Notes: generated from the sequence alone by a model not told the origin. Shown: positions 12,957 through 64,000, counted from the stretch's first letter. The stretch: 64,000 nt of DNA from Acidimicrobiales bacterium (GCA_965116485.1 OZ220692.1:1627152-1691151); one strand, 5' to 3'. Program-made: numbers and translations.

Positions 12957-14363
12957 CTACGGCGTTGCCAGAGCGGATTCAATGTTCTTCTGCAGCGCGG
13001 TGACATGGCGGTCGGTGGTCCAAGTCGAACCGATCGACACTCTGATGAAAGCCCGACCGTTGATAGATGAACCCAACACGTAGACGCTGGGGTCGGAGTT
13101 GAGCGAGTCGAGCAGCCTCTGGGTTGCCTCGTCGCCGTCGACATGGGAGAAACAGACCAACGCGAAAGGGGTTGGAGCGATGACGGTCAACTCGGGTTGT
13201 TGTTCGACCCACTCGGCCAGACCGCGGGCCTGTCTCACATTGGCGCGGATTCGCTCGCGCAGGCCCTCGACCCCGAAACTGCGAAGCACCCACCACAGTT
13301 TGAGCGCCCGAAATCGTCTTCCGAGGGGCACATGCCAGTCTCGATAGTCGATCACCTCGCCGGCGTCGGTAGCGGCGTTGGCCAGGTAAGGGGGTGTGAT
13401 TGCTAGAGTGTTGATCAACGGCTTGCGGTCAGCCACCCAGAACACTGAACAGTCCAAGTTGGTTGCCAGCCATTTGTGGGGATTGAACGTGTAGCTGTCG
13501 ACCAGTTCGAGTCCGTCCTGATGGTGGCGGAACTCTTCGCAGATCATTGCTGCGCCGGCGTAGGCAGCATCGACATGGAACCACAGATTGTGCTGGGCAG
13601 CGATCTCTCCGATAGCCCGGACCGGGTCGACTGCGGTGGTTGCCGTGGTGCCGACTGACGCGCCCACGAACGCGGGCGACAGCCCCGAGGCGAGGTCGTC
13701 GGTGATTGTTCGGGCTAGCGCTTCGGGGCGTGCGGCGAAGCAGTCGTCGACGTCGATGAGACGGACTTGGCCGATGCCCGCCACCCGTGCGCCCTTCTCT
13801 ATCGAAGAGTGGGCTTGGGCTGAGGTGTAAGCGACCATTTTCTCCGCGGCCGCCCCGGTTCGGCTGCGGCAGACCTCGCGGGCCACCACGAGGGCGGTGT
13901 GGGTCGAGTCCGAAGCGCCCGACTGAATCACGCCTCCGCCCGGTCCGGTGGTCTTCCAGTGCTGTGGCGCATCGGTCAGGTCCACGAGCCAGTCCAGAAC
14001 GTGGGATTCGATTTCGGTGACAGCGGGCGAGGTGACCCACATCATCCCCTGCACGCCCAATGCGGCCGCCGCCATCTCCCCAAGAATCGAAGGCGGTGAC
14101 GACTGGGCCTGAAAGTAGGTGAACCATCCGGGGTGCTGCCATTGGGCCAGTCCCGGCACAACCACTTCGTCGAGGTCGCGCAGCAGAGCCTCGAACGGCT
14201 CGGCCGACTCGGGGGCCGAGTCGGGAAGCATGGCTCTCACCTCGCCCGGTGAGACCTGGGCCTGAACTGGTCGCTGCTCGAGGCTTGTGAGATAGTCGGT
14301 GACCCAGTCGACCAACGCATGCCCGTTGGCGCGGAACTCTTCGAGGTCGAGTGGGTCTGACAT
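12957..14363 (-). CDS. Group II pyridoxal-dependent (aromatic amino acid type) decarboxylase
   Basis: 468 aa with SGASDSTHTAL, HVDAAYAG and the NPHKW PLP-lysine motif. Confidence 0.85.
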   Translation of the reverse strand: MSDPLDLEEFRANGHALVDWVTDYLTSLEQRPVQAQVSPGEVRAMLPDSAPESAEPFEALLRDLDEVVVPGLAQWQHPGWFTYFQAQSSPPSILGEMAAAALGVQGMMWVTSPAVTEIESHVLDWLVDLTDAPQHWKTTGPGGGVIQSGASDSTHTALVVAREVCRSRTGAAAEKMVAYTSAQAHSSIEKGARVAGIGQVRLIDVDDCFAARPEALARTITDDLASGLSPAFVGASVGTTATTAVDPVRAIGEIAAQHNLWFHVDAAYAGAAMICEEFRHHQDGLELVDSYTFNPHKWLATNLDCSVFWVADRKPLINTLAITPPYLANAATDAGEVIDYRDWHVPLGRRFRALKLWWVLRSFGVEGLRERIRANVRQARGLAEWVEQQPELTVIAPTPFALVCFSHVDGDEATQRLLDSLNSDPSVYVLGSSINGRAFIRVSIGSTWTTDRHVTALQKNIESALATP

Positions 14364-14367
14364 CTTC

Positions 14368-14634
14368 TCAGCCCTGACCGTAGCGGGTGACGTCGCCTAC
14401 TTTTTGTTCGAAGAGGCCGAGAACCTCTCCGGGTTCGTCGTGGCGCCCCGTCTGGTCCTTGGAGTAGATGAGGTCGCCGTCGACTGTGACGTCGAACACT
14501 CCCTGGGTTCCGGTGGTCAGCGTCAGCTGTTCAATGACGTGCTGGTAGTTCGAGAGAAGGTCTTTTGCTGCGCTCACGGCGTAGCTCGAATAGTCTCAAG
14601 GCACGCAATATTTTATGTCAACGATGTGTCCCAT
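14368..14634 (-). CDS. SelW/Rdx-family redox protein, candidate selenoprotein (TGA at 14596-14598 read as Sec)
   Basis: The minus strand from ATG 14634 reads MGHIVDIKYCVP-TGA-DYSSYAVSAAKDLL...GVFDVTVDGDLIYSK. This gives a CxxU motif in the Rdx position. The track only shows the 69-aa part after the TGA. Confidence 0.6.
14567..14585 (-). promoter_or_regulatory. SECIS-like hairpin
   Basis: The RNA is GCUACGC-CGUGA-GCGCAGC: a 7-bp stem with one A.C mismatch and a GU-containing apical loop. It starts 10 nt after the UGA. Confidence 0.45.
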
Positions 14635-14783: not shown

Positions 14784-15284
14784 ATGGCTGAAATCACCCT
14801 TGGCGGCAACCCCGTCAACACCAGCGGCGCACTTCCTGCAGTGGGCCGCGCAGCGCCTTCGTTCGTCCTCACCGGAGCCGATTTCAGCTCGGTTTCGCTG
14901 TCGGATTTTGCCGGGCAGAGAGTCGTGCTCAACGTCTTTCCCTCGATCGACACAAGTGTCTGCGCCACCAGTGTTCGTGCCTTCAATGAGCGAGCCGCGG
15001 GTCTCGACAACGCGACCGTGCTGTGTGTGTCAGCGGACCTTCCGCCGGCTGCTGGTCGTTTCTGCGGGGCTGAGGGAATTGAAGCCGTGAAGACTGGTTC
15101 GACCTTCAAGAACCCCGAAGTGTTGGACGACTACGGAGTGAGAATGCTCGACGGTCTGCTGGAGGGCCTTGCTGCCCGAGCGGTGGTGGTGATCGACGAA
15201 TCTGGCACCGTCGTCCACACTGAACTTGTTCCCGAGGTCGCGCAGGAGCCCGACTACGACGCCGCGTTGGCCGCGTTGGGCTAA
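14784..15284 (+). CDS. tpx: Thiol peroxidase (atypical 2-Cys peroxiredoxin)
   Basis: 166 aa with FPSIDTSVCATS (peroxidatic Cys) and FCGAEG (resolving Cys). Confidence 0.9.
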   Translation: MAEITLGGNPVNTSGALPAVGRAAPSFVLTGADFSSVSLSDFAGQRVVLNVFPSIDTSVCATSVRAFNERAAGLDNATVLCVSADLPPAAGRFCGAEGIEAVKTGSTFKNPEVLDDYGVRMLDGLLEGLAARAVVVIDESGTVVHTELVPEVAQEPDYDAALAALG

Positions 15285-26311: not shown

Positions 26312-26638
26312 TATAGTACGGGTTCGAGACCCTTGTCAAGTATTTCTCGCCCGATTTTCGTCACGAACGTCATGCACAGCTCATAATCTCCTGCTTTACG
26401 TGGGCAAACAGTGACAAATCAGTGCACCGATTTTGTTGACGCAGGAGGCCCCAGAGACTGAGGCCGACAAGATTCAGCGCGGTCGATAAGTCACGCTCAC
26501 AGCAACTGACGCTGGCAACTGTGCTTGACCGCGGGCGGTCGCCTAGTCGCTCACATCTTGGTATTCAGGACCCTAGCAGGGCTTTCGCGGATCGGATTGT
26601 CACGGTTGCTGCTACCGCGGCTCGGTTTGTACGTGGTG

Positions 26639-26654
26639 GATAACGGGAATTATC
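26639..26654. promoter_or_regulatory. Third copy of the 16-bp palindrome (inverted, 1 mismatch)
   Basis: GATAACGGGAATTATC is the reverse complement of the site above with one change. It lies 30 bp upstream of the giant gene's ATG. Confidence 0.45.
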
Positions 26655-26683
26655 CGCACGTATCCAGGACGGGGACCAACCCA

Positions 26684-29600
26684 ATGCAACGCCACGCCGA
26701 TTCCACAGCTTTTTGTCTGCGCTCACTAGCTACCAGGCTGGGTCGATCCCGCCGTGTCCTCAGGGGTGTGGCGCTGATGTTGATCTTCGCGTCAGCAGCG
26801 TACGGACTTACGGCCGTGCCCCCAGTGTCGATGCCACAGGCGGCAGCCGACGACCAAACCGAGACATATCAAGAACGGGTTGCGCCGTTCACTCAAACCG
26901 ACCGCGTCAGGGTAGCGCCGTTCACTGAGACTTACCAAGAGCGCGTCCCGCCATACACCCAAACCGTCCGCGTCAGGGTTGCGCCGTTCACCGAGTCCTA
27001 CCAGGTACGTGTCGCACCGTTCACCGAGAGCTATCGGGTGCGTGTCGCGCCGCTCACCGAAACCTATCGCGTCAGGGTTGCGCCGTTCACTCAAACCGAC
27101 CGCGTCAGGGTAGCGCCGTTCACTGAGACTTACCAAGAGCGCGTCCCGCCATACACCCAAACCGTCCGCGTCAGGGTTGCGCCGTTCACCGAGTCCTACC
27201 AGGTACGTGTCGCGCCGTTCACCGAGAGCTATCGCGTGCGTGTCGCGCCGTACACTCGAAGCGTGGCTGCATACAACTACGAAACGGTGTGTCCTCCCTG
27301 TCGTCAGGTTCGGGTAGCGCCGTTCACGCGAACCGTGGCTGTCTACAACTACGAAAACCGCACTCGAAATGTTTACAACTACGCGAACCGCACGCGAGCC
27401 GTCTTCAACTACGAAAACCGCACGCGAAATGTTTACAACTACGCGAACCGCACGCGAGCCGTCTTCAACTATGCGGACCGCACCCGAGATGTCTACAACT
27501 GGGAGAACCGAACGCGAGCTGTCTACAACTATGAGAATCGCTCCCGACCCGTTTGGAACTACGAAACCCGCACCCGATCAGTAGTCAACTACGAAAACCG
27601 CGTGCAAGACTTTTTTCACTATGCGGAACGCACGCGAGATGTCTTCAACTATGCGGAACGCACCCGAGATGTCTACAACTGGGAGACAAGGACTCGCAGT
27701 GTCTCCCACACTCATACCTGCCCCGCGGGCCAGCAGCTCGAGGGCCATGCCACCTGCGTACCAACGACCACCACGACGACGACAACGACGACAACGACTA
27801 CAGCACCACCACCCCCTAGACCTGTGGTTTCGATTACCGCTCACCCATCTGTCACCGAGGGAGCCCGCGCGTTGTTCACGGTCAGTGCTGCGCTTGCACC
27901 ATCAGAGACGCTCACGGTCACTGTGGCGGTGGCCGGAGGTGGTTACGCGTCGACTGGTACGCGTTCTGTGACATTGCAGGGTTCCTCATCATTCCCTCCC
28001 GGTCTTGCTACCGGCTTGCTGTCAGTGGCTACCGTCGATGACACGCTAGACGAGCCCGACGGAACGGTTACCGCAACAATCACAGCCGGCGCCGGCTACA
28101 CCGTTTCCGCCTCAGCGCGCTCGGCTGCCGTGACAGTCAAAGACAACGATTTGTCTGCTAGGGAGAGATGCGAGGCCGACGGAGGAACTTGGACTCCGCC
28201 GCTGGTTGACCCCTGCGTGAAACCTACGGTGTCGATCACTGGCCCCGCAGCGCCCGTCACAGAAGGCGCTGCGGTTCATTTCACTGTCACTGTTTCTCCA
28301 GCGCCTGCGTATTCGCTTGACGTTTCGGTGGCTGTGTCGTCTGTCGGCGGCTACGCGGCGTCTAATACTCGAACGGTGACGGTGCCCACCAGCGGAACCG
28401 CTGCTTTCACTGTCGCTACACTCAACGACACCGTGGATGAACCCGACGGTTCGGTAACTGCGACTATTGGAGCCAGTAGCCGCTACACTGGAGGCGGCGC
28501 CTCAGCAACCGTCGCGGTGCGAGACGACGACGCGACGCCTACTCAGGGGGATTGCCCCAGCGGCTACTACGAACTCGTCGATCCGTTGCCGACGGCCTGG
28601 ATTGATCTGTTCAACAGCGAAGTTAGTTTCGACCAAGCCACAGGGTTGCACCCTGAGCCCGTTGTGTGGGTGCCGCAGCGAAGTATCCCGCGGACACAAG
28701 ACCGGGGCTGTTACATGGCTCGTTTCGAAGTCACCGACGTGGGAGCGGTAAACGAGAACGAACTGAAAGAAGCGGCAACAGCCGCGTTAGTGGTCGGCTC
28801 ACAAGCATACAACGTGATCTGCGATCCCGTTGCAACGGTTACGGCAGAGTTGGGGCTCAGAAGAGCGGAGAAGTCTAAGGCTGTCGCCAGGATCGCTACG
28901 AGGCTGGGCACTACCAGCGCCAAAATCGTGCAGCGGGCTTCGATCGTGTTGAATGTTGTGTGTCTGCCAGCCACCATACAAGACGTGCTCAGCGTGTTGA
29001 GATGGATCGACGGGCTGTTCTCAACACCGCCGAAGCCGCTGTGCCCGGACCCTCCGACGGGGTTGGCTCTAGTCGGCACCGATGGGGCGATACAGGTGTC
29101 GTGGACACCCCCAACCAACGCGCCTGAAACAGAGGCCGACGAACACGGCGAGCACAGATACACTGTCTATTGGGGGGAAGGTGCGAGTTCGCTGGGTGCT
29201 CCGATCACGGGAATCAAGACCATCTGGCGTTCAGGGCCTCGAGCGGCGCACACAATTGCAGCAACAAATGGGCACGAATACTGGGTTCAAGTCTTCTGGG
29301 GCACGAAACTCGGATGCGAAGGGCAAGCACCAGTGGTAGAGGGAACAGTCACGCCAATCGCCGCTCCAAGCGCTCCACGCGGTCTGGTTCTCCTGCCTTC
29401 GGAAGGGCAGATACGGGTTTCATGGCAAGCAGCGCCGCATACCAGCGCGGCGCCCGTCGAGGGGTACCAAGTTTCGTGGAGCGACAGCGGAGGTCGTATC
29501 GACAGCGCTCGCGTGCTGCGAGGTGTCACAACGCACACGATCGGGGGCCTCACCAACGGGAGGACCTATCACGTCAGCGTGTCCGCGCACAATGTCTCGG

Positions 29601-30547
29601 GCCCCTCGGCTGCAGTATCCTACACAACAATCCCAATCACTGCTCCTAGTGCGCCGACCGGTCTGGTCCTTACACCTGCTGGAGGGCAGATACGGGTTTC
29701 GTGGCAGCCGGCGCCGCACAGCAGCGCGGCGCCCGTCGAGAGGTACAAAATTTCGTGGAGCGAAATCATCGGACCCGATGGCCAGGACGTTCACCTGCAT
29801 CAAGATGCCAGAGAGTATACGATCGAGGGCCTTGCCAACGGGAGGGTCTACAGCGTCGAAGTACACGCGTACAATAGGTTAGGCAACTCGACTGCCATTG
29901 GCGGCAGAGCAATCCCCAGGGTCGCTGCTCCTAGTGCGCCGACCGGTTTGGTCCTTACACCTGCTGGAGGGCAGATACGGGTTTCGTGGCAGCCGGCGCC
30001 GCACAGCAGCGCGGCGCCCGTCGAGGGATACGACATAACGTGGAGCGACAGCACAGGCCATATCGACAGCGCTAGCGTGCTGCGAGGTGTCACAACGCAC
30101 ACGATCGAGGGCCTTACCAACGGGAGCGCCTACAGCGTCGAAGTAAACGCGTACAATACCGATGATTTGGACCGTATATCATACTCGACTGTCATTAGCG
30201 GCACGGCAACCCCGGTCGTCGTTCCTAGTGCGCCGACCGGTATGGTCCTTACGCCTGCTGAAGGGCAGATGCGGGTTTCGTGGCAGCCAGCGCCGCACAG
30301 CAGCGAGGCGCCCGTCGAGGGATATTATATCAGCTGGTACACCGGCACCGGCGCAGGCGCACAACCCAGCGCTCTCACACCGCGAGGCCAAACGACATAC
30401 ACGATCACGGGCCTTACCAACGGGAGCGCCTACAGCGTCTTCGTGTACGCTGTCAATGCCGCAGGCAAATCGGCTCACATCTGGGGCAAAGCAACCCCTA
30501 GGGCAGCGACACCGACCGCCGCGACTCACCCCCGTCGCCTACGCTGA
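26684..30547 (+). CDS. Giant secreted repeat protein (novel 11-aa and 10-aa repeats, 2 Calx-beta-like modules, unknown Cys module, 5 FN3-like modules)
   Basis: ATG at 26684. RSRRVLRG plus a hydrophobic stretch resembles a Tat/Sec signal. Then about 13 x (xYxVRVAPFTE), about 12 x (VYNYENRTRx), and a poly-Thr/Pro linker. TVDDTLDEPDG and TLNDTVDEPDG are Calx-beta signatures. Repeated APSAPTGLVLTPAGGQIRVSWQP marks the FN3 starts. Confidence 0.8.
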   Translation: MQRHADSTAFCLRSLATRLGRSRRVLRGVALMLIFASAAYGLTAVPPVSMPQAAADDQTETYQERVAPFTQTDRVRVAPFTETYQERVPPYTQTVRVRVAPFTESYQVRVAPFTESYRVRVAPLTETYRVRVAPFTQTDRVRVAPFTETYQERVPPYTQTVRVRVAPFTESYQVRVAPFTESYRVRVAPYTRSVAAYNYETVCPPCRQVRVAPFTRTVAVYNYENRTRNVYNYANRTRAVFNYENRTRNVYNYANRTRAVFNYADRTRDVYNWENRTRAVYNYENRSRPVWNYETRTRSVVNYENRVQDFFHYAERTRDVFNYAERTRDVYNWETRTRSVSHTHTCPAGQQLEGHATCVPTTTTTTTTTTTTTAPPPPRPVVSITAHPSVTEGARALFTVSAALAPSETLTVTVAVAGGGYASTGTRSVTLQGSSSFPPGLATGLLSVATVDDTLDEPDGTVTATITAGAGYTVSASARSAAVTVKDNDLSARERCEADGGTWTPPLVDPCVKPTVSITGPAAPVTEGAAVHFTVTVSPAPAYSLDVSVAVSSVGGYAASNTRTVTVPTSGTAAFTVATLNDTVDEPDGSVTATIGASSRYTGGGASATVAVRDDDATPTQGDCPSGYYELVDPLPTAWIDLFNSEVSFDQATGLHPEPVVWVPQRSIPRTQDRGCYMARFEVTDVGAVNENELKEAATAALVVGSQAYNVICDPVATVTAELGLRRAEKSKAVARIATRLGTTSAKIVQRASIVLNVVCLPATIQDVLSVLRWIDGLFSTPPKPLCPDPPTGLALVGTDGAIQVSWTPPTNAPETEADEHGEHRYTVYWGEGASSLGAPITGIKTIWRSGPRAAHTIAATNGHEYWVQVFWGTKLGCEGQAPVVEGTVTPIAAPSAPRGLVLLPSEGQIRVSWQAAPHTSAAPVEGYQVSWSDSGGRIDSARVLRGVTTHTIGGLTNGRTYHVSVSAHNVSGPSAAVSYTTIPITAPSAPTGLVLTPAGGQIRVSWQPAPHSSAAPVERYKISWSEIIGPDGQDVHLHQDAREYTIEGLANGRVYSVEVHAYNRLGNSTAIGGRAIPRVAAPSAPTGLVLTPAGGQIRVSWQPAPHSSAAPVEGYDITWSDSTGHIDSASVLRGVTTHTIEGLTNGSAYSVEVNAYNTDDLDRISYSTVISGTATPVVVPSAPTGMVLTPAEGQMRVSWQPAPHSSEAPVEGYYISWYTGTGAGAQPSALTPRGQTTYTITGLTNGSAYSVFVYAVNAAGKSAHIWGKATPRAATPTAATHPRRLR
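26864..27258 (+). repeat. 33-bp (11-codon) coding repeat array, including a 198-bp near-perfect tandem duplication
   Basis: TYQERVAPFTQ / TDRVRVAPFTE / SYQVRVAPFTE and similar. The DNA at 26884-27053 recurs at 27082-27251. Confidence 0.9.
27259..27706 (+). repeat. 30-bp (10-codon) coding repeat array
   Basis: VYNYENRTRN VYNYANRTRA VFNYENRTRN ... VYNWETRTRS. Confidence 0.9.
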
Positions 30548-37718: not shown

Positions 37719-39240
37719 ATGTCTCGCGGTGACCCCCGCCCCAACGTCGTGCTGATCAACTGCGACGACCTCGGCTACGGCGACCTCGGATGCTACGGCT
37801 CGAAAGTGCACGACACGCCGGCGATCGACGCATTGGCTGCCGAGGGGATGAGGCTCACCGACTTCTACATGGGGTCGGCCGTGTGCACGCCGTCGCGGGG
37901 AGCGATGTTGACCGGCTGCTACCCGCCGCGTATCGGCTTCGATGACTTCGACGGCATGCATGTGCTGTTCCCGGGAATGGCCGGAGGACTCAACCCCAGC
38001 GAGAAGACCATCGCCCGGCTCCTCAAAGACGCGGGTTACACCACGCAGATCGTCGGCAAGTGGCATTGCGGAGACCAGCCTGACTTCTTGCCGACTCGTC
38101 ACGGTTTCGACGGCTGGTACGGGCTTCCATACAGCAACGACATGGGGATCCAAGCGTCGGCGTTCACCGAAGAGGAGATCACGAGAATCAGAGACGAACT
38201 CGGAATCGAACTGCCCTTCGATTCGCATCCTCCGCTCCCGCTCATGCTAGACGAAGAGGTGATCGAAGCGCAGCCGGACCAGGCCGCGCTCACCGAGCGT
38301 TACCTGCAGGAATCGATCAGGTTCATCAGAAGCAACCGTGACAAGCCGTTCTTGCTGTATTTCGCGCACATGTACGTACACCTGCCGCTGTATGTGCAAC
38401 CGCGGTTCGCGGCAGAGTCACGCAATGGTCCCTACGGGGCAGCGGTTCGTTGCATCGATTGGGCGCTTGCGGTACTGATGGCTGAGCTGACGGCTCTGGG
38501 TTTGAGCGACGACACGATCGTCATCTTCACCAGCGACAACGGCGCGTTGTGCCGACCCGGGGAAGGCAGCAACGCGCCGTTGCGGGACGTCAAGGGCACG
38601 ACCTGGGAAGGCGGGATACGGGTTCCCTGCATCGTGCGTTGGCCGGGCGAGGTGCCGGCAGGTACAACATCGGACGCGCTCACGACCGCTATGGACCGCC
38701 CTCTCAAGCCCTCAAGCTCTTCTTCAACGTCAAGGTACAACATCGGACGCGCTCACGACCGCTATGGACCTGTACCCGACGATCGCAGGCTGGTGCGGCG
38801 CGGATGTACCGACCGACAGAACGATCGACGGTTGCGATATCGATGCGGTGCTTCGGGGCAGGGCCGCAGAATCGCCCAGGGAGACGTTCCTGTACTACAG
38901 CGGCTCGACTCTGGAAGCCGTCCGAATGGGCAAATGGAAGCTTCATCTGGTCAAGGGCAGCAGATGGCGCGGAGGCGACAGCGAAGAGATGCCCCAACTC
39001 TTTGATCTGGCCTCCGACGTCGGCGAGACCAGCAATGTGCTGGCCGACCATCCCGATGTGGTCGCACAGATCATGGTCCATGTCGATGCCGCAAGGGCAG
39101 ACCTGGGGGACACGGCCGCTGGAGTCGAAGGGTCTGGGCGCCGCCCGCAGGGACGAGTCGACAATCCTGTGACGCTGACCACCTTCGACCCCGACCATCC
39201 CTACTACATGGCCGAATACGATCTCGCTGACAGGGGCTGA
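37719..39240 (+). pseudogene. Cys-type sulfatase disrupted by a 73-bp insertion
   Basis: NCDDLGYGDLGCYG and CTPSRGAML (formylglycine motif). The frame shifts by +1 at the insertion; removing 73 bp restores a 482-aa ORF. Confidence 0.8.
38661..38770. repeat. 37-bp direct repeat flanking a 36-bp filler (the sulfatase insertion)
   Basis: ggtacaacatcggacgcgctcacgaccgctatggacc occurs at 38661-38697 and 38734-38770. The filler is gccctctcaagccctcaagctcttcttcaacgtcaa. Confidence 0.9.
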
Positions 39241-39251
39241 GGCAAGCAGCG

Positions 39252-40886
39252 CTAACGCAGTCTCACCGGGGTGCTGACTTCGGAGTAGAAGTCGTTGCCC
39301 TTGTCGTCGATGACGATGAAGGCGGGGAAGTTCTCGACCTCGATCTTCCAGATCGCTTCCATGCCGAGTTCCGGGTACTCGAGGACTTCCACGGCGCGGA
39401 TTGAGTCCTGAGCCAGGCGAGCCGCGGCTCCGCCGATGGAGCCCAGGTAGAAGCCGCCGTGGCGGGCGCACGCTTCGGTCACCTCTCGGGACCGGTTGCC
39501 TTTGGCCAGCATCACCATCGAGCCTCCTGCGGCCTGGAACTCGTCGACGTAGGAGTCCATGCGTCCCGCGGTCGTGGGTCCGAACGAACCTGAGGCGTAC
39601 CCGGTCGGCGTTTTGGCCGGTCCCGCGTAGTAGATCGCGTGGTCGCGGAGGTACTGCGGCATCGGCTCGCCGCGGCTGAGCCTTTCGGAGATCTTGGCGT
39701 GGGCGATGTCACGGCCCACGACGAGCGTGCCGTTGAGAGACAGCCGTGTCTTCACCGGATGCTTGCTCAGTTGGTTGCGGATCTCGTCCATGGGTTGGTT
39801 GAGATCAACGGTGACGACCTCGCTGGACAGGTCGTCGGTGGCGGCGTCGGGCAGGAAACGAGCCGGATCGGTTTCGAGCTGTTCGAGAAAGATCCCCTCA
39901 GCGGTGATCTTGGCCTTGGCCTGACGGTCGGCGGAGCAGCTGACGGCTATCCCCACCGGGTTCGAGGCGCCGTGGCGGGGGAGGCGGATAACCCGCACGT
40001 CGTGGCAGAAGTACTTGCCTCCGAATTGAGCGCCGATGCCGAACTCGCGGGTTTGTTGGAGCACCTTGTTCTCCCACTCGATGTCGCGGTAGCCGTGGCC
40101 GGTGTCGGCGCTGCCTGACGTTGGCAGCGTGTCGAGGTAGTGGGCGGAGGCCAGCTTGGCGACCTTGAGGTTGAACTCCGCTGAGGTGCCCCCGACAACC
40201 AGAGCAAGGTGATACGGAGGGCAAGCCGAGGTGCCGACCGCACGCAGCGACTCGTCAAGGAAGTCCAGCAGCGACTCGGTGTTCAACAGGGCCTTCGTCT
40301 TCTGGAACAGGAAGGACTTGTTGGCCGACCCCCCGCCCTTGGCCATGAACAGGAACTCGTAGCTGCTGCCAGGCTTGGAGTAGAGCTCGATCTGTGCCGG
40401 CAGGTTGTTTTGAGTGTTGGACTCTTCAAACATCGACACCGGCGCCAGTTGCGAATAGCGCAGGTTGGTTTCGGTGAAGGTGTCGAACACTCCTGCCGAT
40501 ATCGCCTCGGCGTCGTCTCCGTAGGTGACGACCTGGTCGCCCTTCTTGCCCATCACGATGGCGGTGCCGGTGTCCTGGCACATGGGGAGCACTCCTGCGG
40601 CGGCGATGTTGGCGTTGAGCAGCAGTTCGTGGGCCACGAAGACGTCGTTACCGGAGGCCTCGGGGTCTTTCAGGATGCCGGCCAGCTGTTCGAGGTGCTC
40701 GGTGCGCAGGTAGTGGGCGATGTCGTTCATCGCGGCGCGGGTGAGCAGCCGGATCGCCGACGGTTCAACTTTGACGAATGTGCGCCCGTCGGCATCGAAA
40801 GTGGAGACTCCCTCAGTCGAGATCAGGCGGTACTCGGTGGTGTCGACTCCGAGCGGCAACAGATCGGAGTAGGCGAACTCGGTCAT
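39252..40886 (-). CDS. fumA: Class I (Fe-S) fumarate hydratase
   Basis: 544 aa with [19 protein letters not shown] and the C-terminal beta-type domain. Confidence 0.88.
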
Positions 40887-40925
40887 GGCTCCACGCTACT
40901 CGCCGGGACTGGCCGACGATGCTCA

Positions 40926-41195
40926 CTATCCGCAAACCCGTCTGACCTCAGCTTCGGTGATGATGACTCGTGCTCTGAGCTCGATCAACTCGTCGTGCGC
41001 ACCATGCTCATGTCCTTCGACGTGCGCCGTGTTGTGCGTTTGCAGCGCTTCGCCCCAGTCGCTCTCGGCGTAGGCTTGTGCCTCGGCGACGTCAGCGCAT
41101 TCTGCGGAGCCTCCTTTAGCGGAGCATGCGCTCAGGAGGACGACCAGCGACATTGTCGCTCCGATATTGCGCTCTGGGTTCGTTCGAATTTTCAT
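40926..41195 (-). CDS. Small His-rich lipoprotein
   Basis: MKIRTNPERNIGATMSLVVLLSAC lipobox; the mature part contains HVEGHEHGAHDE. Confidence 0.55.
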   Translation of the reverse strand: MKIRTNPERNIGATMSLVVLLSACSAKGGSAECADVAEAQAYAESDWGEALQTHNTAHVEGHEHGAHDELIELRARVIITEAEVRRVCG

Positions 41196-41239
41196 ACTTC
41201 TTGCCTCGATGTTTTGCTGTCCATATGTTGATATTGGTT

Positions 41240-41290
41240 GTGCGGCAGGGCCGAAGCAGCTTGCTACGGTTACGGACGGCCCTGCCGCAC
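41240..41290. repeat. Perfect 14-bp inverted repeat with a 23-nt loop
   Basis: gtgcggcagggccg ... cggccctgccgcac lies between the lipoprotein gene and the 2-TM gene. It is duplicated at 46394-46444. Confidence 0.85.
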
Positions 41291-41343
41291 GGCTTTGTGT
41301 GCGCCAGCCTGTGGTCTCCCGCAAGAGGGGCTAGAGTAAACTC

Positions 41344-41586
41344 ATGACTGATGCGCACGGAGACGAGAAAACCCGCCTCCAGCGGATTTGGCTGTCGAAG
41401 ACGACCCTTGTGATGACAAGGAGGACAGCATTGATGCAGGGGTTTTTCGCCTTTGTGTTTTGGCTCCATTGGGATATGCCTCTCGCATCTGTGTTTCTGT
41501 TTGCCGTCTCACTCGTGTCCGCCGGCATGTCGGTCCATTCCTGGCGAAAGCGCCGTGAAGTACGGCTGGAAAGGCTGGCCAGCTGA
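41344..41586 (+). CDS. Small 2-TM membrane protein, allele D1
   Basis: 80 aa: charged N-terminus (DEKTRLQRIW), two hydrophobic helices, basic tail (WRKRRE). Confidence 0.65.
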   Translation: MTDAHGDEKTRLQRIWLSKTTLVMTRRTALMQGFFAFVFWLHWDMPLASVFLFAVSLVSAGMSVHSWRKRREVRLERLAS

Positions 41587-41595
41587 TGCTCTCGT

Positions 41596-41994
41596 CTAGT
41601 GGCCTTCGGTGGACTGGATCCCTGTGGCACCGCAGTAGAGTCCGGCAGCGGGATTGACCCAGCCGGCGATCCCGCAGCCTGCCCACCAGAGCCATTGGTT
41701 GTGGGTGTGGGGGCGTTCGTACCTGGGTCCGCAACGCCTGTAGCGTTCGTAACCCCAGATTGGGACGCCGTATCTGTATTCTCCCTCGCCGTTGCCGAAA
41801 TCGTGCCAGTACATCTGGTTGGGGTCCCATCGGTAACCGATGATCGTGTAGTTCGTTGATTGCACCCAGGTGCAGTCTTGCGCGTAGGCCACATGAGCGG
41901 ACGCGGGTTCGGTGTCGGTGACCGTCACGACGGTCAATGTGCTGGCCAGCACGGCCAGCGCCAAGATACCAACAGCAGCTGAACGGGTTCTCAT
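41596..41994 (-). CDS. Secreted Cys/Trp/Tyr-rich small protein, allele D1
   Basis: Signal peptide MRTRSAAVGILALAVLAS...PASA. The ~100-aa mature part has 4 Cys and a Gly-rich hydrophobic C-terminus WLWWAGCGIAGWVNPAAGLYCG. Confidence 0.65.
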   Translation of the reverse strand: MRTRSAAVGILALAVLASTLTVVTVTDTEPASAHVAYAQDCTWVQSTNYTIIGYRWDPNQMYWHDFGNGEGEYRYGVPIWGYERYRRCGPRYERPHTHNQWLWWAGCGIAGWVNPAAGLYCGATGIQSTEGH

Positions 41995-42589
41995 AAGGGG
42001 TGTCCTTTGATTCCAGTTAGCAAGCTGCGTGCGGTAGGGTAGCTGAATTCGCCTCCAGCCGCAACAATTGATTGCTTCCACTACCCCGCGCCAAGTGCCG
42101 GGGTCCAATCGCCGGCTTTGGTGCTCACGAGTTCATCATGTCGCGCCAGCGAAAATCTGGCCGTCGGCTCACACCGAGCCGTCGATGGGGGTGCCCGAAC
42201 ATGGTGCGGGGTCGCGGTGCTCGATTGCTGAGACGTTTCGCTGGTTGCCCGTTGGTTTGGGGCCGGTGGGGTCGGGTGCGTTTGTGGGTGTCGGCTGTCT
42301 CGGTGGTGTCTATCGGAGCAGGCGAGGCGGGTGCGGCCGATAGACGACAACCACCTGGATGTAGCGTCAGTCGACCCGCTGACATCGCGCTGGGGCCTCT
42401 GCGGTGAATGCTTCAGCCGCCTGTCATCGGGTGCCTGTCCGATTCAATCAGTTTCCGCTGGTGAGTCGTGGTTGCTGCAGGTGTCGAGATGTCTCGAGCG
42501 GATCGAAGTGTGCCGGGTTCCAGCCAGGGGGGAGCCATTCGACGAGTTCGCTGTGGCGGGGGTGGCCCTTTTCGGCTTGTTCAGTCACC

Positions 42590-44948: not shown

Positions 44949-44987
44949 CGAATACGATCTCGCTGACAGGGGCTGAGGCAAGCAGCG

Positions 44988-46040
44988 CTAACGCAGTCTC
45001 ACCGGGGTGCTGACTTCGGAGTAGAAGTCGTTGCCCTTGTCGTCGATGACGATGAAGGCGGGGAAGTTCTCGACCTCGATCTTCCAGATCGCTTCCATGC
45101 CGAGTTCCGGGTACTCGAGGACTTCCACGGCGCGGATTGAGTCCTGAGCCAGGCGAGCCGCGGCTCCGCCGATGGAGCCCAGGTAGAAGCCGCCGTGGCG
45201 GGCGCACGCTTCGGTCACCTCTCGGGACCGGTTGCCTTTGGCCAGCATCACCATCGAGCCTCCTGCGGCCTGGAACTCGTCGACGTAGGAGTCCATGCGT
45301 CCCGCGGTCGTGGGTCCGAACGAACCTGAGGCGTACCCGGTCGGCGTTTTGGCCGGTCCCGCGTAGTAGATCGCGTGGTCGCGGAGGTACTGCGGCATCG
45401 GCTCGCCGCGGCTGAGCCTTTCGGAGATCTTGGCGTGGGCGATGTCACGGCCCACGACGAGCGTGCCGTTGAGAGACAGCCGTGTCTTCACCGGATGCTT
45501 GCTCAGTTGGTTGCGGATCTCGTCCATGGGTTGGTTGAGATCAACGGTGACGACCTCGCTGGACAGGTCGTCGGTGGCGGCGTCGGGCAGGAAACGAGCC
45601 GGATCGGTTTCGAGCTGTTCGAGAAAGATCCCCTCAGCGGTGATCTTGGCCTTGGCCTGACGGTCGGCGGAGCAGCTGACGGCTATCCCCACCGGGTTCG
45701 AGGCGCCGTGGCGGGGGAGGCGGATAACCCGCACGTCGTGGCAGAAGTACTTGCCTCCGAATTGAGCGCCGATGCCGAACTCGCGGGTTTGTTGGAGCAC
45801 CTTGTTCTCCCACTCGATGTCGCGGTAGCCGTGGCCGGTGTCGGCGCTGCCTGACGTTGGCAGCGTGTCGAGGTAGTGGGCGGAGGCCAGCTTGGCGACC
45901 TTGAGGTTGAACTCCGCTGAGGTGCCCCCGACAACCAGAGCAAGGTGATACGGAGGGCAAGCCGAGGTGCCGACCGCACGCAGCGACTCATCAAGGAATT
46001 CCAGCAGCGATTCGGTGTTCAACTAGGCGAACTCGGTCAT
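44988..46040 (-). pseudogene. fumA copy with a 582-bp in-frame internal deletion that creates a TAG
   Basis: ATG ACC GAG TTC GCC TAG TTG AAC... The MTEFA start remnant is joined to codons for NTESLL...; the downstream 344 codons match fumA. Confidence 0.8.
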
Positions 46041-46079
46041 GGCTCCACGCTACTCGCCGGGACTGGCCGACGATGCTCA

Positions 46080-46349
46080 CTATCCGCAAACCCGTCTGAC
46101 CTCAGCTTCGGTGATGATGACTCGTGCTCTGAGCTCGATCAACTCGTCGTGCGCACCATGCTCATGTCCTTCGACGTGCGCCGTGTTGTGCGTTTGCAGC
46201 GCTTCGCCCCAGTCGCTCTCGGCGTAGGCTTGTGCCTCGGCGACGTCAGCGCATTCTGCGGAGCCTCCTTTAGCGGAGCATGCGCTCAGGAGGACGACCA
46301 GCAACATTGTCGCTCCGATATTGCGCTCTGGGTTCGTTCGAATTTTCAT
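46080..46349 (-). CDS. Small His-rich lipoprotein, copy 2
   Basis: One aa difference (S to L in the signal peptide) from 40926-41195. Confidence 0.5.
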   Translation of the reverse strand: MKIRTNPERNIGATMLLVVLLSACSAKGGSAECADVAEAQAYAESDWGEALQTHNTAHVEGHEHGAHDELIELRARVIITEAEVRRVCG

Positions 46350-46497
46350 ACTTCTTGCCTCGATGTTTTGCTGTCCATATGTTGATATTGGTTGTGCGGC
46401 AGGGCCGAAGCAGCTTGCTACGGTTACGGACGGCCCTGCCGCACGGCTTTGTGTGCGCCAGCCTGTGATCTCCCGCAAGAGGGGCTAGAGTAAACTC

Positions 46498-46740
46498 ATG
46501 ACTGGTTCGCACAGCGACGAGAAAACCCGGCTCCAGCGGTTTTGGCTGTCAAAGGCGACTTTGGTGCTGACGAGGAGGGCTGCAATCATGGATGGGTTTT
46601 TTGCGGTTGTATTTTGGCTCCATTGGGATATGCCTCTTGCATCGGTTCTTCTGTTCGCTCTTTCGATCGTCTCCGCTGGCATGTCGGTCCATTCCTGGCG
46701 AAAGCGCCGCGAGGAACGGTCGGAAGTGCTCGCTAGTTGA
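46498..46740 (+). CDS. Small 2-TM membrane protein, allele D2
   Basis: 80 aa, 16 aa differences from allele D1. Confidence 0.65.
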   Translation: MTGSHSDEKTRLQRFWLSKATLVLTRRAAIMDGFFAVVFWLHWDMPLASVLLFALSIVSAGMSVHSWRKRREERSEVLAS

Positions 46741-46749
46741 TGGTCTTGG

Positions 46750-47148
46750 CTAGTGGCCTTCCGTGGACTGGATCCCTGTGGCACCGCAGTAGAGTCCGAC
46801 AGCAGGACTGACGCGGCCAATGACCCCGCAAGCTCCAAACCAGAGCCATTGATTGTGGGTGTGGGGGCGTTCGTACCTGGGTCCGCAACGCCTGTAGCGT
46901 TCGTAACCCCAGATTGGGACGCCGTATCTGTATTCTCCCTCGCCGTTGCCGAAATCGTGCCAGTACATCTGGTTGGGGTCCCATCGGTAACCGATGATCG
47001 TGTAGTTCGTTGATTGCACCCAGGTGCAGTCTTGCGCGTAGGCCACATGGGCGGACGCAGGTTCGGTGTCGGTGACCGTCACGACGGTCAATGTGCTGGC
47101 CAGCACGGCCAGCGTCAAGATACCAACAGCAGCTGAACGGGTTCTCAT
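46750..47148 (-). CDS. Secreted Cys/Trp/Tyr-rich small protein, allele D2
   Basis: Identical to D1 except one signal-peptide residue and the C-terminal block WLWFGACGVIGRVSPAVGLYCG. Confidence 0.65.
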   Translation of the reverse strand: MRTRSAAVGILTLAVLASTLTVVTVTDTEPASAHVAYAQDCTWVQSTNYTIIGYRWDPNQMYWHDFGNGEGEYRYGVPIWGYERYRRCGPRYERPHTHNQWLWFGACGVIGRVSPAVGLYCGATGIQSTEGH

Positions 47149-47322
47149 AAGGGGTGTCCTTTGATTCCAGTTAGCAAGCTGCGTGCGGTAGGGTAGCTGA
47201 ATTCGCCTCCAGCCGCAACAATTGATTGCTTCCACTACCCCGCGCCAAGTGCCGGGGTCCAATCGCCGGCTTTGGTGCTCACCAGATCATCATGTCGCGC
47301 CAGCGAAAATCTGGCCGTCGGC

Positions 47323-47811
47323 TCACACCGAGCCGTCGATGGGGGTGCCCGAATATGGTGCGGGGTCGCCTTCGGCGGGGATCTGTGGCCGGGACCAGTG
47401 AGCCAGATCAGCGATCGCTTCGGCAACGTCGCGCCAGGTGTCGGGATCCCAGCCTTCGGCCTTGGCGGTCACGGCGCCGTCCTGTCGGACCAGCAGGATA
47501 CAGGGGGCGGACTCGACGCCCAGACCCATGGCGATGGCGCGGGTCGGGTCTGCGAAGGTCAACACTTCTTCGGCGTACGGCCCGAGGAAGCGCTTGGCGT
47601 CGTCGGGGGAGCAGGTGAGAATCCAGCAGGGACGACAGTCAGCTTCTCGGAACCCCTCCAGGATTCTCTTGGAAGTGTCGAGAATCCAGGCGCTCTCATG
47701 GGTGAAAGGGTCGAGCACCACGCATGCGAGCGGGAAGGTCGTGAGCCAATCGGAAAGGGGACGGCTTTCGCCGTTGAGAGGATCGAGTTCGAGCTCGGGT
47801 GTGGTTATCAC
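47323..47811 (-). CDS. Thioredoxin-fold protein with a CRPC motif
   Basis: 162 aa; FREADCRPCWIL and the strand/helix pattern fit a TlpA/AhpC-like fold. Assignment is by eye only. Confidence 0.5.
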   Translation of the reverse strand: MITTPELELDPLNGESRPLSDWLTTFPLACVVLDPFTHESAWILDTSKRILEGFREADCRPCWILTCSPDDAKRFLGPYAEEVLTFADPTRAIAMGLGVESAPCILLVRQDGAVTAKAEGWDPDTWRDVAEAIADLAHWSRPQIPAEGDPAPYSGTPIDGSV

Positions 47812-58577: not shown

Positions 58578-61036
58578 CTACTGTTCGGTCTGCGGGTTGA
58601 CCCAGACGGTGACTATCTGGTCGACGACGTCGGTCGTCCCCGGAACCGGGTTCTGGGCCCAGACTCTGCCCACGCGCGTCTCGCTGTCGGCGTCGGGATT
58701 CTGGATCAACCTGGTGATGACGCCGAGTCCTGCGCTCGCCAGTGACTGCTTTGCCTCGCTTTCGAGCAGGCCGACCACATCGGGGACAGGGTCGGCGCTG
58801 GGTTCCACGGCTATCTCGACGGTGATGATCACGCCGCCGGGCACGACCGATCCTGCCGCGGGAACCTGCATGAAGATCGTTCCCGACGGGTAGGCGGTGG
58901 TCTCGCGCTCGACCACGGTGATCATGAAGAACTCCTCTTCCATCTGAAGCCTGAGCTCTTCGTCGACCACGCGACCGAACAGGTCGGGCACGACGATCTC
59001 ATCGGGGGCATTGGGCAGCGTTGTGGTGGTTGAACTGGTAGGCGGGGTCGGGAACTCGCCGAGAGGCATTCCGTCGTGCATCTCATCCATGATCTCTTTC
59101 CAGATCAAGGCTGGGAAGGTGCCGCCGGCGACCGGACGCCCTGCGAACTCGTTGCTCATCGGCACCTGCCCGACGGGATAGCCGACCCACACCGCTGCCG
59201 TGCGCGCCGCGGTGTAGCCGACGAAGGTGGCGTCGGCATTGTTCTGCGATGTCCCCGTCTTGCCGGCCGCAGTGCGACCGCCGTCGAGTTGCGCCCGGGT
59301 ACCGGTTCCGCTGGTGATGGTGCCGGTCAACACCCAGGAGATCTGATCAGCGACCGACGCGCTCAGCACCGGAGCAGGTCTCGGCACGGCTTCGTACAGC
59401 AGCGTTCCGTCGGGGTTGGTGATATGGGTCACGATGATCGGATCGAGCCGCACCCCGGAGCGTTTGAATGTCGAGAAGGCCGTGGCCAGTTCAACCATGT
59501 TGACGTTCTCTGTGCCGAGCACGGCAGCGCACACCGGAGCGATCCTGCCAACTCCGAATCCCAGCTTCTCGGCCATCGAGACGAGGCTGCGCGGACCGAT
59601 GCGCTCGATCAACTGCGCATAGACGGTGTTGATCGAGCTGCGGGTCGCCTCGACGAGCGTGATGCTCGCGACCTCCTCTTCCTCTTCGCCGTCTTCGTCG
59701 AAGCGGCGCACTCCGCCTTTCACCTCCCATGGCTCTCCGCAAACGGGGAGATTGTCGATCTCGATTTCGACGGGAGCTTCCCAGGAGCTGGTGACAGGGA
59801 TGCCGCCCTGAACCGCGGCAGCGAGACCGATCGGTTTCATCGCTGATCCGGCCTGGCGCCCCGATCCGGACGCGAGGTTGAACTTCGCGTCGTCCCGCTC
59901 GCCGAAGAAGTCCCTCCCGCCGAACATGGCGAGAACGTGGCCGTCGTCGCTTGGAGTCGTGCCCATGACCACCGCGGCAGCGTCGGGGTTCTCGGCGCCG
60001 TCCTCTCGAAATCGCGGCAGCGCCCGCTCGACGGCCGCCTCGGTCCTGGCCTGAAGCTCCAGGTCGATGGTGGCATGGATGGTCAGCCCGCCTTCGAAGA
60101 GGAGGCGGGTCCGGTCGTCGCGGGTCTCGCCGAACTGTTCGTTGTCGAGGAACCACTGTTTGACGTCCTCGACGAAGTAAGCGGCCGGATACCTCTCTTC
60201 GAGGATCGGCACGTCGTCGACCAGTTCGATCGGCTCCAGCCGTGCGAATTCATACTCTTCGAGCGTTATGTAGTCGTTGGTGTACATACGCAGCAGCACG
60301 AGGTCGCGCCGGTCGCGGGCTTCATTGGGATTCTGGTAGGGGTTGTAGCGGCTAGGCGCCTGGATGAACCCGGCCAGGGTCGCTGCTTCCACGAGGCTGA
60401 GCTCGGTCACTTTGAGGCAGCCGTCGCCCGCGATGCCCTGCAGAGCGCAGTCGGGTGCGCCGAAATACTGGCGGGCAGCGGCTTCGATGCCGTAGGCGCC
60501 GTTCCCGAAGTAGATCCAGTTGAGGTAGCGCTCGAGGATGAACTCCTTGGTGTAGTGCTGTTCGAAGCGCAACGCCATGAACAGCTCCTCGATCTTGCGA
60601 CTGCCAGTGTTGTCGCTGCGGTCCAAGAAGACGTTGCCCACATACTGCTGGGTGATGGTGGAGCCCCCCTGGCTGATCCCTCCGGCGCTCACGTTGGAGC
60701 GAGCCGCTCGCAGGATGGCCTTGAGGTCGATGCCGTTGTGATCCCAGAAACGCTCGTCCTCGATGGCGATCACTGCGTTCTGGACGATTTCGGGTATGTC
60801 CGCGAAGGCGACGTCGGTGCGGTTCTGCTCCCCCCGCAGACTTGTGATGAGTCTGCCGTTGCGGTCCAGCACGACCGACGACTGTGCTGTCTCGAGATCG
60901 CCGACCGAGAAGTCCGAGCCGAACAATGTGTCGAAGTCCTTGGTCTCGAAGCTGCAGCCCGCGGCGAGGACCGCGATTGCCGCGAGCGCCGCGAGGTGGA
61001 GTCGAGCTCGGCGGCGGGGGCGGCGCATGGCCCCCA
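58578..61036 (-). CDS. Class A penicillin-binding protein (GT51 transglycosylase plus transpeptidase) with C-terminal PASTA domains
   Basis: MGAMRRPRRRARLHLAALAAIAVLAAG TM segment, EDERFWDHNGID and GGSTITQQ (GT51), SAMKP (transpeptidase Ser), and two PASTA-like repeats at the C-terminus. The track ORF runs on to 62612 only for lack of stops. Confidence 0.85.
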
Positions 61037-61169
61037 TTGTGCTCACAAACGAGGCCCGATCCTCACCACCGATATTTGGAACGCGGCTCGGGATTTGATC
61101 TCGTATCGTGGTGCCGCATGACTGAGAACTGCGCGAGTGTTGAAAGCGTCGGCGTCGCCAGACGTTGCT

Positions 61170-61335
61170 CTCCCGCTCTTGTTCGCTGGGTTCCACCTCC
61201 CGCTCTTGTTCGCTGGGTTCCACCTCCCGCTCTTGTTCGCTGGGTTCCACCTCCCGCTCTTGTTCGCTGCGCTCACCGGGCCGCTCGGGCCGCGGGCGGG
61301 CCGCTCGGGCCCCGGGCGGGCCGCTCGGGCCGCGG
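61170..61335. repeat. 27-bp tandem repeat (3.7 copies) followed by a 20-bp GC-rich repeat (3 copies)
   Basis: ctcccgctcttgttcgctgggttccac units start at 61170, 61197, 61224 and 61251. The cgggccgctcgggccgcggg-type units follow at 61277-61335. The array lies between the divergent PBP and tyrS starts. Confidence 0.9.
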
Positions 61336-61370
61336 CCACGCTGCTTGGGCAGTGTGGCGTGGGATATAGC

Positions 61371-62654
61371 ATGACGAACAGCGTGGCCTCCGGGGCGGCT
61401 GTTGTTGATGATCTCGGGTCTCGCGGCTTGCTGCAGGATCACACCGAGGAGGCGGCACTTCGGGAGTTGCTCGAGCCGGGTGATGTCACCTTGTATCACG
61501 GCATCGACCCGACGGCTCCGAGCCTGCACCTCGGCAACCTCATCGGAGTGCTGGTGCTGCGGCGCTTCCAGGACGCCGGGCACCGGCCGATCGCCCTTGT
61601 GGGCGGCGCTACCGGCATGGTCGGTGACCCCAGTTGGCGGTCTGGCGAACGGAACCTCCTCGACCTTGACGAACTTTCCGCGAACGTTGCGGGGATTCGA
61701 TCGCAATTGGAGCGGCTGCTCGACTTCGGCGGAGCGAGCGGAGCTGAGTTGGTCAACAATTATGAATGGACTCGCGATGTGACTTTGCTCGAGTTTCTGC
61801 GTGACGCCGGCAAGCATGTCACCGTCAACCAGATGGTTGCGAAGGACTCGATCCGTTCGAGGATGACCAGCGATGCGGGCATCTCGTTCACGGAGTTCAG
61901 TTACATGCTGCTGCAGGCTTTCGATTTCTGGTGGCTGCACGAGAACCGCGGCTGCAAGTTGCAAATCGGCGGTTCGGACCAGTGGGGCAACATCACCGCC
62001 GGAATCGACTTGATCCGCCGACGCAGCGGGGTTCGCGCCCACGGCCTCACCTGGCCGCTGATGACCCGCAGCGACGGCGCCAAGTTCGGCAAGACTGCTG
62101 AGGGCGCGGTCTGGCTCGACCCTGAGATGACGATGCCCTACGAGTTCCATCAGTACTTCTTGCGAGTCAGCGATGCCGATGTGGAACGCACGCTCATGCA
62201 GTTGACACTGCTGGGAGTCGACGACATTGCAGAGGTCATGGCTGAGCACGCGGCGAACCCCCACAAGCGGGTTGCGCAACATGAGTTGGCCGACTCGGTG
62301 ACCGGTCTGATCCATGGGTCCACTGAACTGCGCCGAGCCAAAAGAGCCGCAGCGGCGCTGTTCGGTGGAGGTGAGCTCGACGCGGAGGGCCTCGAGTCTC
62401 TGCGCGGGACAGTGCCCGAGACGCTGGTCGCAGCCGAATCGGTCGGTCCTGATGAACCGGTCGTCGATCTCTTGGTGGTGACCGGCGTGTGCGCTTCGAA
62501 AGGCGACGCCCGCCGTACGATCAAACAGGGCGGGATCCGGGTCAACGGCCGTCTGGTGACCGGCAGCTCCGAGCCAGTGGAGGCGGTCGGCGGACGTTTT
62601 GCTCTGGTGCAACGCGGTAAGAAGCAGCGGTATTTGGCGGTATTCGACGACTAG
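61371..62654 (+). CDS. tyrS: Tyrosyl-tRNA synthetase
   Basis: LYHGIDPTAPSLHLGNL (HIGH region), KFGKT (KMSKS), C-terminal S4-like domain. ATG at 61371. Confidence 0.92.
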   Translation: MTNSVASGAAVVDDLGSRGLLQDHTEEAALRELLEPGDVTLYHGIDPTAPSLHLGNLIGVLVLRRFQDAGHRPIALVGGATGMVGDPSWRSGERNLLDLDELSANVAGIRSQLERLLDFGGASGAELVNNYEWTRDVTLLEFLRDAGKHVTVNQMVAKDSIRSRMTSDAGISFTEFSYMLLQAFDFWWLHENRGCKLQIGGSDQWGNITAGIDLIRRRSGVRAHGLTWPLMTRSDGAKFGKTAEGAVWLDPEMTMPYEFHQYFLRVSDADVERTLMQLTLLGVDDIAEVMAEHAANPHKRVAQHELADSVTGLIHGSTELRRAKRAAAALFGGGELDAEGLESLRGTVPETLVAAESVGPDEPVVDLLVVTGVCASKGDARRTIKQGGIRVNGRLVTGSSEPVEAVGGRFALVQRGKKQRYLAVFDD

Positions 62655-62739: not shown

Positions 62740-63144
62740 GGTTACTCGCCTCGGTGGACGCTAGGTCTGATGAGCGCGTAGTGAGGCATCAACTGGCCGG
62801 TTCATCCGGTCAGCGTGCCTGGCACTCCGGTGTCGAGTGCTCCTTGAAAACGGAAGAGACGGACGCAAAGCGAGTGCGGGTGACGTTTTGGATTTCGCGA
62901 TCCGAAACGGCATCTGTCAATTTGAAACCGGGGTTCTCAACGGCCCCGGTGAGCCAGTCCGTCCAGCTCCAACTGGACGGGCGAACCTCTTCGATCACCG
63001 ATCGGTGAGCGGAGAGGAAACTGGTCACTGCAAGCCAGCGGTGGCCGGCTCTACGTAAACGCTGGGTGCCTCACGCGATCACTCCGTGTGATTGAGGCAT
63101 CCGCAAACCGATCTGAAGGCCGGCTCTGCTGGTCGAAAGATCTC

Positions 63145-64000
<856 letters not shown>

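Follow-up and report, generated by a model that had tools for sequence, protein, structure and literature searches.

Does an in-frame TGA near the beginning of a small Acidimicrobiales gene end translation, or is it decoded as selenocysteine (Sec)? The question arises on the minus strand of a 64,000-nucleotide stretch of DNA (GCA_965116485.1 OZ220692.1:1627152-1691151, hereafter the window), where a mechanical ORF starts at GTG 14577 and gives a product of 69 aa, and where the same frame, followed upstream through a TGA, reaches an ATG at 14634. From a comparison of this locus with its homologues, we conclude that it very probably encodes a SelW-like CxxU selenoprotein of 88 aa that begins at ATG 14634, carries Sec at the UGA of codon 13 and depends on a hairpin read by SelB.

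Reading frame, start codon and family membership

The minus-strand frame extends from ATG 14634–14632 to a stop TGA at 14370–14368 and comprises 88 codons plus the stop (CDS 14368..14634), colinear with 60 homologous loci. Codons 1–12 translate as MGHIVDIKYCVP, with Cys10 encoded by TGC 14607–14605; codon 13 is the TGA at 14598–14596, and the same frame continues as DYSSYAVSAAKDLL... and ends in RYGQG, so that the product with TGA written as U is these two segments joined by a U. At the DNA level, the segment up to codon 13 reads ATG (14634) GGA CAC ATC, then GTT GAC ATA AAA, then TAT TGC GTG CCT TGA (14598–14596). Downstream of the TGA, the strand reads GAC TAT TCG AGC, then TAC GCC GTG (14577) and AGC GCA GCA AAA. 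The redox motif C-V-P-U thus occupies 14596..14607 (minus strand; TGC, GTG, CCT, TGA), its last triplet being the proposed Sec codon, which is placed by alignment to CxxC proteins and by conservation of the TGA.

Among the window gene and 16 close orthologous genes, the ATG (14632..14634) is invariant, and codons 1–12 are 91% identical vs 49% for the 60 nt 5' of the ATG. At two of the loci (L008 and L015), a stop interrupts the frame two codons 5' of this ATG. Judged from the sequence comparison, ATG 14634 is the real start, and the GTG chosen by ORF and gene callers (14575..14577) is an internal codon, Val20, that lies in the loop of the hairpin described below and gives a truncated Rdx match. 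A consensus scan found no promoters or terminators on the strand of the gene. Translation ends at the genuine stop TGA (14368..14370), and by eye no hairpin comparable to that of codon 13 was seen after it, in the 4-nt stretch that leads to the ATG of the next gene. Since a TGA ends the very gene that contains one internally, TGA is not reassigned genome-wide and its decoding depends on context.

Written with Cys in place of U, the read-through form matches the Pfam Rdx profile (PF10262) with 62.3 bits over profile positions 2–69 of 74 (cut-off 22.6), compared with 39.3 bits and positions 20–69 only for the 69-aa form. It also scores above the cut-off of NCBIfam TIGR02174 (CXXU_selWTH; 47.8 bits vs 34.2) and below that of the equivalog NF041051 SelTWH_Campy (68.3 bits vs 88); by these profile scores, the gene is related to the NF041051 group and is not a member of it. 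The initial annotation had described an ORF that starts at GTG 14577 and lacks its N-terminal part, and an upstream ATG in the same frame that, together with the TGA, restores a CxxU motif. Translation and profile alignment bear out both points: the 69-aa form is devoid of profile positions 1–19, and the CxxU sits at the CxxC position of the family.

C10 and U13 align with the CxxC of the solved SelW-related proteins 3dex (SAV_2001; E = 7.5e-8) and 2fa8 (Atu0228), as well as with the CVPC of the Cys homologues P0022 and P0057. Homology to the Cys-containing SelW-related structures (these two, 2p0g, 2obk, 2oka and 2ojl) spans the whole domain (E = 7.5e-8 to 3.5e-3), with CxxC in the same place; by contrast, those proteins have a Cys in a motif of the C-T-Q-C-x-W type where the window gene has a UGA in C-V-P-U-D-Y, and identity is ~25%. 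The AlphaFold model of the Cys orthologue P0022, which is 63% identical to the window protein, has a pLDDT of 80 and places beta1 at residues 4–8, CxxC at 10–13 and alpha1 at 17–30. A Foldseek search of the PDB with this model returned Rdx-family (SelW-related) proteins as the top 15 and as 22 of the top 23 matches, and superposition gave TM values of 0.59–0.65 for bacterial SelW-related proteins (~0.65 for the Cys structures) and 0.48 for mouse SelW. Judged on the P0022 model, the protein is predicted to adopt the thioredoxin-like alpha/beta fold, and a GTG-started product would be without beta1, the redox motif and the start of alpha1.

Conservation of the TGA and of the hairpin downstream of it

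A protein search returned 248 homologues. Among the 120 listed, nearly all are 62–75 residues long (most 69–70), cover only the last ~78% of the query and are shortened at one common point; the few of full length have CVPC (P0022, P0057). For 34 loci on GTDB contigs, with one genome per species, we collected the DNA and found TGA in the same column in 33, the exception (L034) having TGT. Of 26 scorable metagenome loci, 25 likewise have TGA and one has TGT. TGA is therefore kept in 58 of 60 homologous loci, which span Acidimicrobiia, Chloroflexota, Myxococcales, Gammaproteobacteria, Planctomycetaceae and others, with TGT in the remaining two. That column holds TGC in P0022 and TGT in P0057, two additional homologues that were identified as proteins. 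In the GTDB loci, the segment before the TGA is conserved as (I/V)x(I/L)xYC-x-x.

To the 5' side of the TGA, 11 codons were scored in the window gene and the 16 close genes (codons 1–12 without the Cys/Sec codon 10); they have a dN of 0.022 and a dS of 0.44, a dN/dS of ~0.05; the gene-wide median is 0.14. The low dN, together with the drop in identity 5' of the ATG, indicates that this segment is translated, in frame with the part that follows the TGA. The locus thus shows an in-frame UGA aligned with Cys and coding conservation on both sides of it, as is looked for in selenoprotein genes. Among the findings that would have undone the initial annotation are orthologues that lack the upstream CxxC/U segment and raw reads without the TGA. 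Orthologues retain the segment, and the TGA is base-for-base identical in two independent assemblies of separate runs (ERR14375724 and SRR2157455), a comparison made at the level of assemblies.

Ten nucleotides 3' of the UGA, the mRNA can form a SECIS-like hairpin (14567..14585, minus strand) with a 5' arm GCUACGC (14585–14579), a loop CGUGA (14578–14574) and a 3' arm GCGCAGC (14573–14567). Its coordinates and spacing agree with those first proposed. The stem had been described as seven base pairs, however, and in fact consists of six Watson-Crick pairs, three on either side of a central A·C mismatch, with a folding energy of −6.9 kcal/mol and a z of −0.25 (82 of 200 shuffled sequences fold as well). 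In the window sequence alone the hairpin is not beyond chance, and its significance comes only from the comparison of homologues. A longer lower stem in the minimum-free-energy fold, in which the UGA region pairs with UCUCGA ~45 nt downstream, was set aside; this pairing is not conserved in homologues.

Across Acidimicrobiia-type genes, the stem is CCGCGC / GCGCGG (GCUACGC / GCGCAGC in the clade of the window), with a loop CGUG(A/G/C), and starts 10–11 nt after the UGA. Among 24 distinct sequences of this type, 83% of cells pair and four of the seven pairs change on both sides, for example from U-A to C-G at columns 16/30, or to U-A at 18/28 in L027. None of 500 shuffles reached the covariation score, a slid 3' arm paired in 14–63% of cells, and RNAalifold recovered the same stem unprompted. 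Codons 17–22 are the longest run without a nucleotide change among the 17 close genes (permutation P ~0.005); they coincide exactly with the hairpin, and flanking codons vary freely at synonymous sites. A stem-loop whose small apical loop contains a G thus follows closely on the UGA, the second feature looked for in selenoprotein genes.

Nine more distant homologues, including genes labelled proteobacterial and planctomycete, have a second form of hairpin, an unrelated stem 15–16 nt after the UGA with a loop of GGUCU, AGUUU or CGGGU, with 89% of cells paired and three pairs altered on both sides. One protein family thus has two hairpin positions after the UGA, both covarying (alignments of the first 45 nt from the TGA, L001–L062). 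Cys-form homologues lie at L066:289-408, L067:501-650, L034 ~10030 and L059 ~3030. In P0022 (TGC; L066), the hairpin is intact, which suggests a recent change from Sec to Cys. No comparable stem was seen by eye in the TGT forms P0057, L034 and L059 (L034 was also folded), where the peptide differs. The hairpin overlaps conserved codons (R/Y-A-V-S-A-A), as its retention in the Cys form P0022 indicates, and part of its conservation may lie at the protein level.

The hairpin resembles the E. coli fdhF-type SECIS, which binds SelB, in lying within the CDS just 3' of the UGA and in having G and U in a small apical loop, and the GGUCU loops of the distant homologues are presumably of the fdhF kind. 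Compared with the fdhF type, the putative SECIS of the window has a much shorter stem (3+3 bp), an A·C mismatch where the fdhF type has a bulged U, and the loop CGUGA.

Proposed decoding of the TGA

The frame, the family, the conservation and the hairpin covariation are shown by these data, from which we infer actual Sec insertion, binding of SelB, redox chemistry and substrate. Translation would start at ATG 14634; SelB would deliver Sec-tRNA(Sec) and bind the small hairpin 10 nt 3' of UGA-13, whose loop CGUGA contains G and U, as bacterial SECIS loops typically do, and Sec would be inserted. The terminal UGA would end translation normally. The predicted product is an 88-residue thiol/selenol oxidoreductase of thioredoxin-like fold, in which Cys10-x-x-Sec13, between beta1 and alpha1, would cycle between the selenol/thiol and selenenylsulfide states.

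Neither the 64-kb window nor 63 related loci (~650 kb) gave a tblastn match to SelA, SelB or SelD with E. coli NC_000913 queries, even at E = 1, and ARAGORN found no tRNA-Sec in them, which tells us only that these genes do not lie close to the locus. The window was also scanned for in-frame TGAs that either are flanked by coding-like GC or have a Cys no more than four residues away, and no second selenoprotein gene was convincing; most of the remaining candidates resemble frames antisense to real genes. Published work lends indirect support: in the Aplysina aerophoba sponge microbiome, most symbiont bins contain SelA and SelB COGs together, and the sponge Acidimicrobiia bin76 (61.6% GC; the window has 62.5%) has SelA, SelB and SelD COGs (PMC5649159, Table S4 for bin76). 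In Actinomarina, also Acidimicrobiia, selA, selB, selC and selD are present in all 84 complete genomes (bioRxiv 10.64898/2026.04.03.716425).

One alternative is that the TGA at 14598–14596 is a true stop, with a 69-aa product made from GTG 14577 without the redox motif and the 12 upstream codons serving as a leader or remaining untranslated. This form is the one found in public records and produced by ORF and gene callers, the Sec machinery was unseen in the window and the related loci, and by eye no obvious ribosome-binding site precedes either the ATG or the GTG. We nevertheless think it very improbable: strong purifying selection acts on the upstream codons, which form a continuous homologue of the beta1-CxxC segment of Cys-containing Rdx proteins, the TGA column holds Cys in homologues without TGA, the shortened form would lose beta1 and the start of alpha1 in the model, and its GTG falls within the loop of a conserved hairpin. 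Much the same small chance attaches to a UGA that is read through with Cys, Trp or Gly by a near-cognate or suppressor tRNA, the hairpin being a generic stimulator of read-through. The small, weak hairpin would suit such a mechanism, as would the lack of Sec machinery in the loci searched; yet a UGA aligned to Cys beside a CxxC-type partner is the classic signature of Sec, TGA serves as a normal stop for the same gene, and distant homologues have GGUCU loops presumably akin to that of the fdhF SECIS. Moreover, related sponge and marine Acidimicrobiia carry sel genes, and SelW-like proteins are an established predicted selenoprotein family (PMC1088965, PMC2398784, PMC13188914).

A pseudogene lesion in a CxxC gene, or an error of sequencing or assembly, has hardly any probability left as the origin of the TGA. 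A single base separates TGA from TGC or TGT, but the identity of the two assemblies, the occurrence of TGA across many phyla and studies, at 58 of 60 loci, and the gene-wide median dN/dS of 0.14 effectively refute this reading. The proposal of a hidden SelW/Rdx-like selenoprotein in the initial annotation is therefore supported, by the family match, the conservation of the TGA, purifying selection upstream of it and covariation in the hairpin.

Genomic setting, UxxU lineages and known relatives

The SelW-like gene is followed on the minus strand by a group II PLP-dependent decarboxylase gene (12957..14363; Pfam Pyridoxal_deC, E = 2e-102, no NCBIfam equivalog reaching its cut-off), whose ATG at 14363 lies 4 nt after the SelW-like stop. 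Because of this spacing, the two genes are probably co-transcribed. On the other side, a spacer of 149 nt separates the SelW-like gene from a divergent thiol peroxidase gene (tpx; 14784..15284, plus strand; NCBIfam NF001808, 228.9 bits vs cut-off 123; Pfam Redoxin). The order tpx, SelW-like gene, decarboxylase occurs only in L001–L016 minus L005 and L010 and is absent in more distant homologues; being clade-specific, it says little on function. Clustering of neighbours at 44 loci gave no conserved family-wide neighbour, only antisense-ORF artefacts and small subclade-specific neighbours. Of the redox neighbourhood first proposed, the 4-nt spacing and the divergent tpx thus hold, but the arrangement is conserved in the closest clade only.

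Elsewhere in the window, we observed a segmental duplication of ~2.4–3 kb (39213–42215 and 44949–47369; 95–99.6% identity), which holds a full class I fumarate hydratase gene (39252–40886, minus strand) and a 5'-truncated copy (44988–46022, minus strand) and could be real or an assembly artefact. A 1340-aa ORF (26525–30547, plus strand) encodes several fibronectin type III domains and contains DNA repeats in tandem at ~26877–30439; eukaryote-like repeat proteins such as fibronectin type III ORFs are typical of sponge symbionts. A 1344-aa ORF (58578–62612, minus strand) encodes a class A penicillin-binding protein with a PASTA domain. Its transglycosylase domain begins only at residue 586, which points either to an unusually long N-terminal extension or to a mechanical start placed too far upstream. 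At the end of the window, the first half (5') of a bacterial 16S rRNA gene (63143–64000, plus strand; Rfam RF00177, 851 bits) is cut by the window edge and could serve for taxonomic placement.

In sister lineages, six independent assemblies have TGA at both redox positions, TAT TGA GTT CCT TGA (Y-U-V-P-U). Four are GTDB species representatives labelled Ca. Aldehydirespiratoraceae or Acidimicrobiales (L013:10001-10267, L014:6062-6328, L015:10001-10267, L016:10001-10267), and two are further metagenome assemblies (L070:244-510, L071:244-510); an exact-pattern scan of JGI metagenomes found no UVPU gene. All six have the same single downstream hairpin. The dN/dS of the group is ~0.15, with dS up to 0.43, indicating that the gene is still under purifying selection. 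The reviews consulted describe UxxU for Prx-like, mercuric-reductase-like and FmdB-family proteins, not for SelW-like ones, and our literature search found no report of a UxxU SelW-like form. It is about an even bet that the redox centre of the clade is changing from selenenylsulfide (CxxU) to diselenide (UxxU), with the CVPU of the window as the ancestral state. If both UGAs are decoded, the product would be a UxxU SelW-like protein, and one very small SECIS hairpin would serve UGAs that start 9 nt apart, with six nt between them.

Of the selenoprotein families of marine prokaryotes, the SelW-like CxxU proteins are reported as the most abundant, with Sec forms far outnumbering Cys forms (PMC2398784, PMC1088965), as in the loci studied here. 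Bacterial examples have been catalogued in metagenomes (Sargasso Sea, GOS) and in genomes such as those of Geobacter sulfurreducens and Symbiobacterium thermophilum (PMC1088965, PMC2398784, PMC1794560), and current reviews list the family as PF10262, CxxU, with one Sec (PMC9312934, PMC13188914). The window gene shares with these proteins the Rdx domain, an N-terminal CxxU between beta1 and alpha1, a length of ~75–90 aa, the marine setting and a hairpin close behind the UGA whose apical loop contains G. It differs from them in belonging to a distinct Acidimicrobiia/sponge-associated subclade with a C-V-P-U motif and in its unusually short, mismatched stem 10 nt after the UGA. It shares the fold family and the position of CxxU with mammalian selenoprotein W (PDB 2npb) and the eukaryotic Rdx family (SelW, SelT, SelH, SelV, MIEN1), whereas the eukaryotic proteins use a 3'-UTR SECIS, SBP2 and eEFSec, and the similarity is much weaker (Foldseek TM 0.48).

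In public records, orthologues appear as a 69-aa 'Rdx family protein' or 'hypothetical protein' with an internal GTG start (14368–14577 in the window), among them MDE0067382.1, MDE0607332.1, MCY3850507.1 and MXW63151.1, and the shortening is systematic across the clade. The window gene is a previously mis-annotated one, in a family and with an annotation problem that are already known. Across the sponge-associated and marine Acidimicrobiia group, the correct product would be an 88-aa selenoprotein, and the records are without the catalytic motif. Given the standing of the family among marine prokaryotes, the gene adds little new biology in itself. It marks the lineage as a probable selenocysteine user, which fits reports of sel genes enriched in sponge symbionts, and the minimal, mismatched and invariant hairpin, the two hairpin positions and the UxxU variant bear on how much spacing SelB and SECIS elements tolerate.
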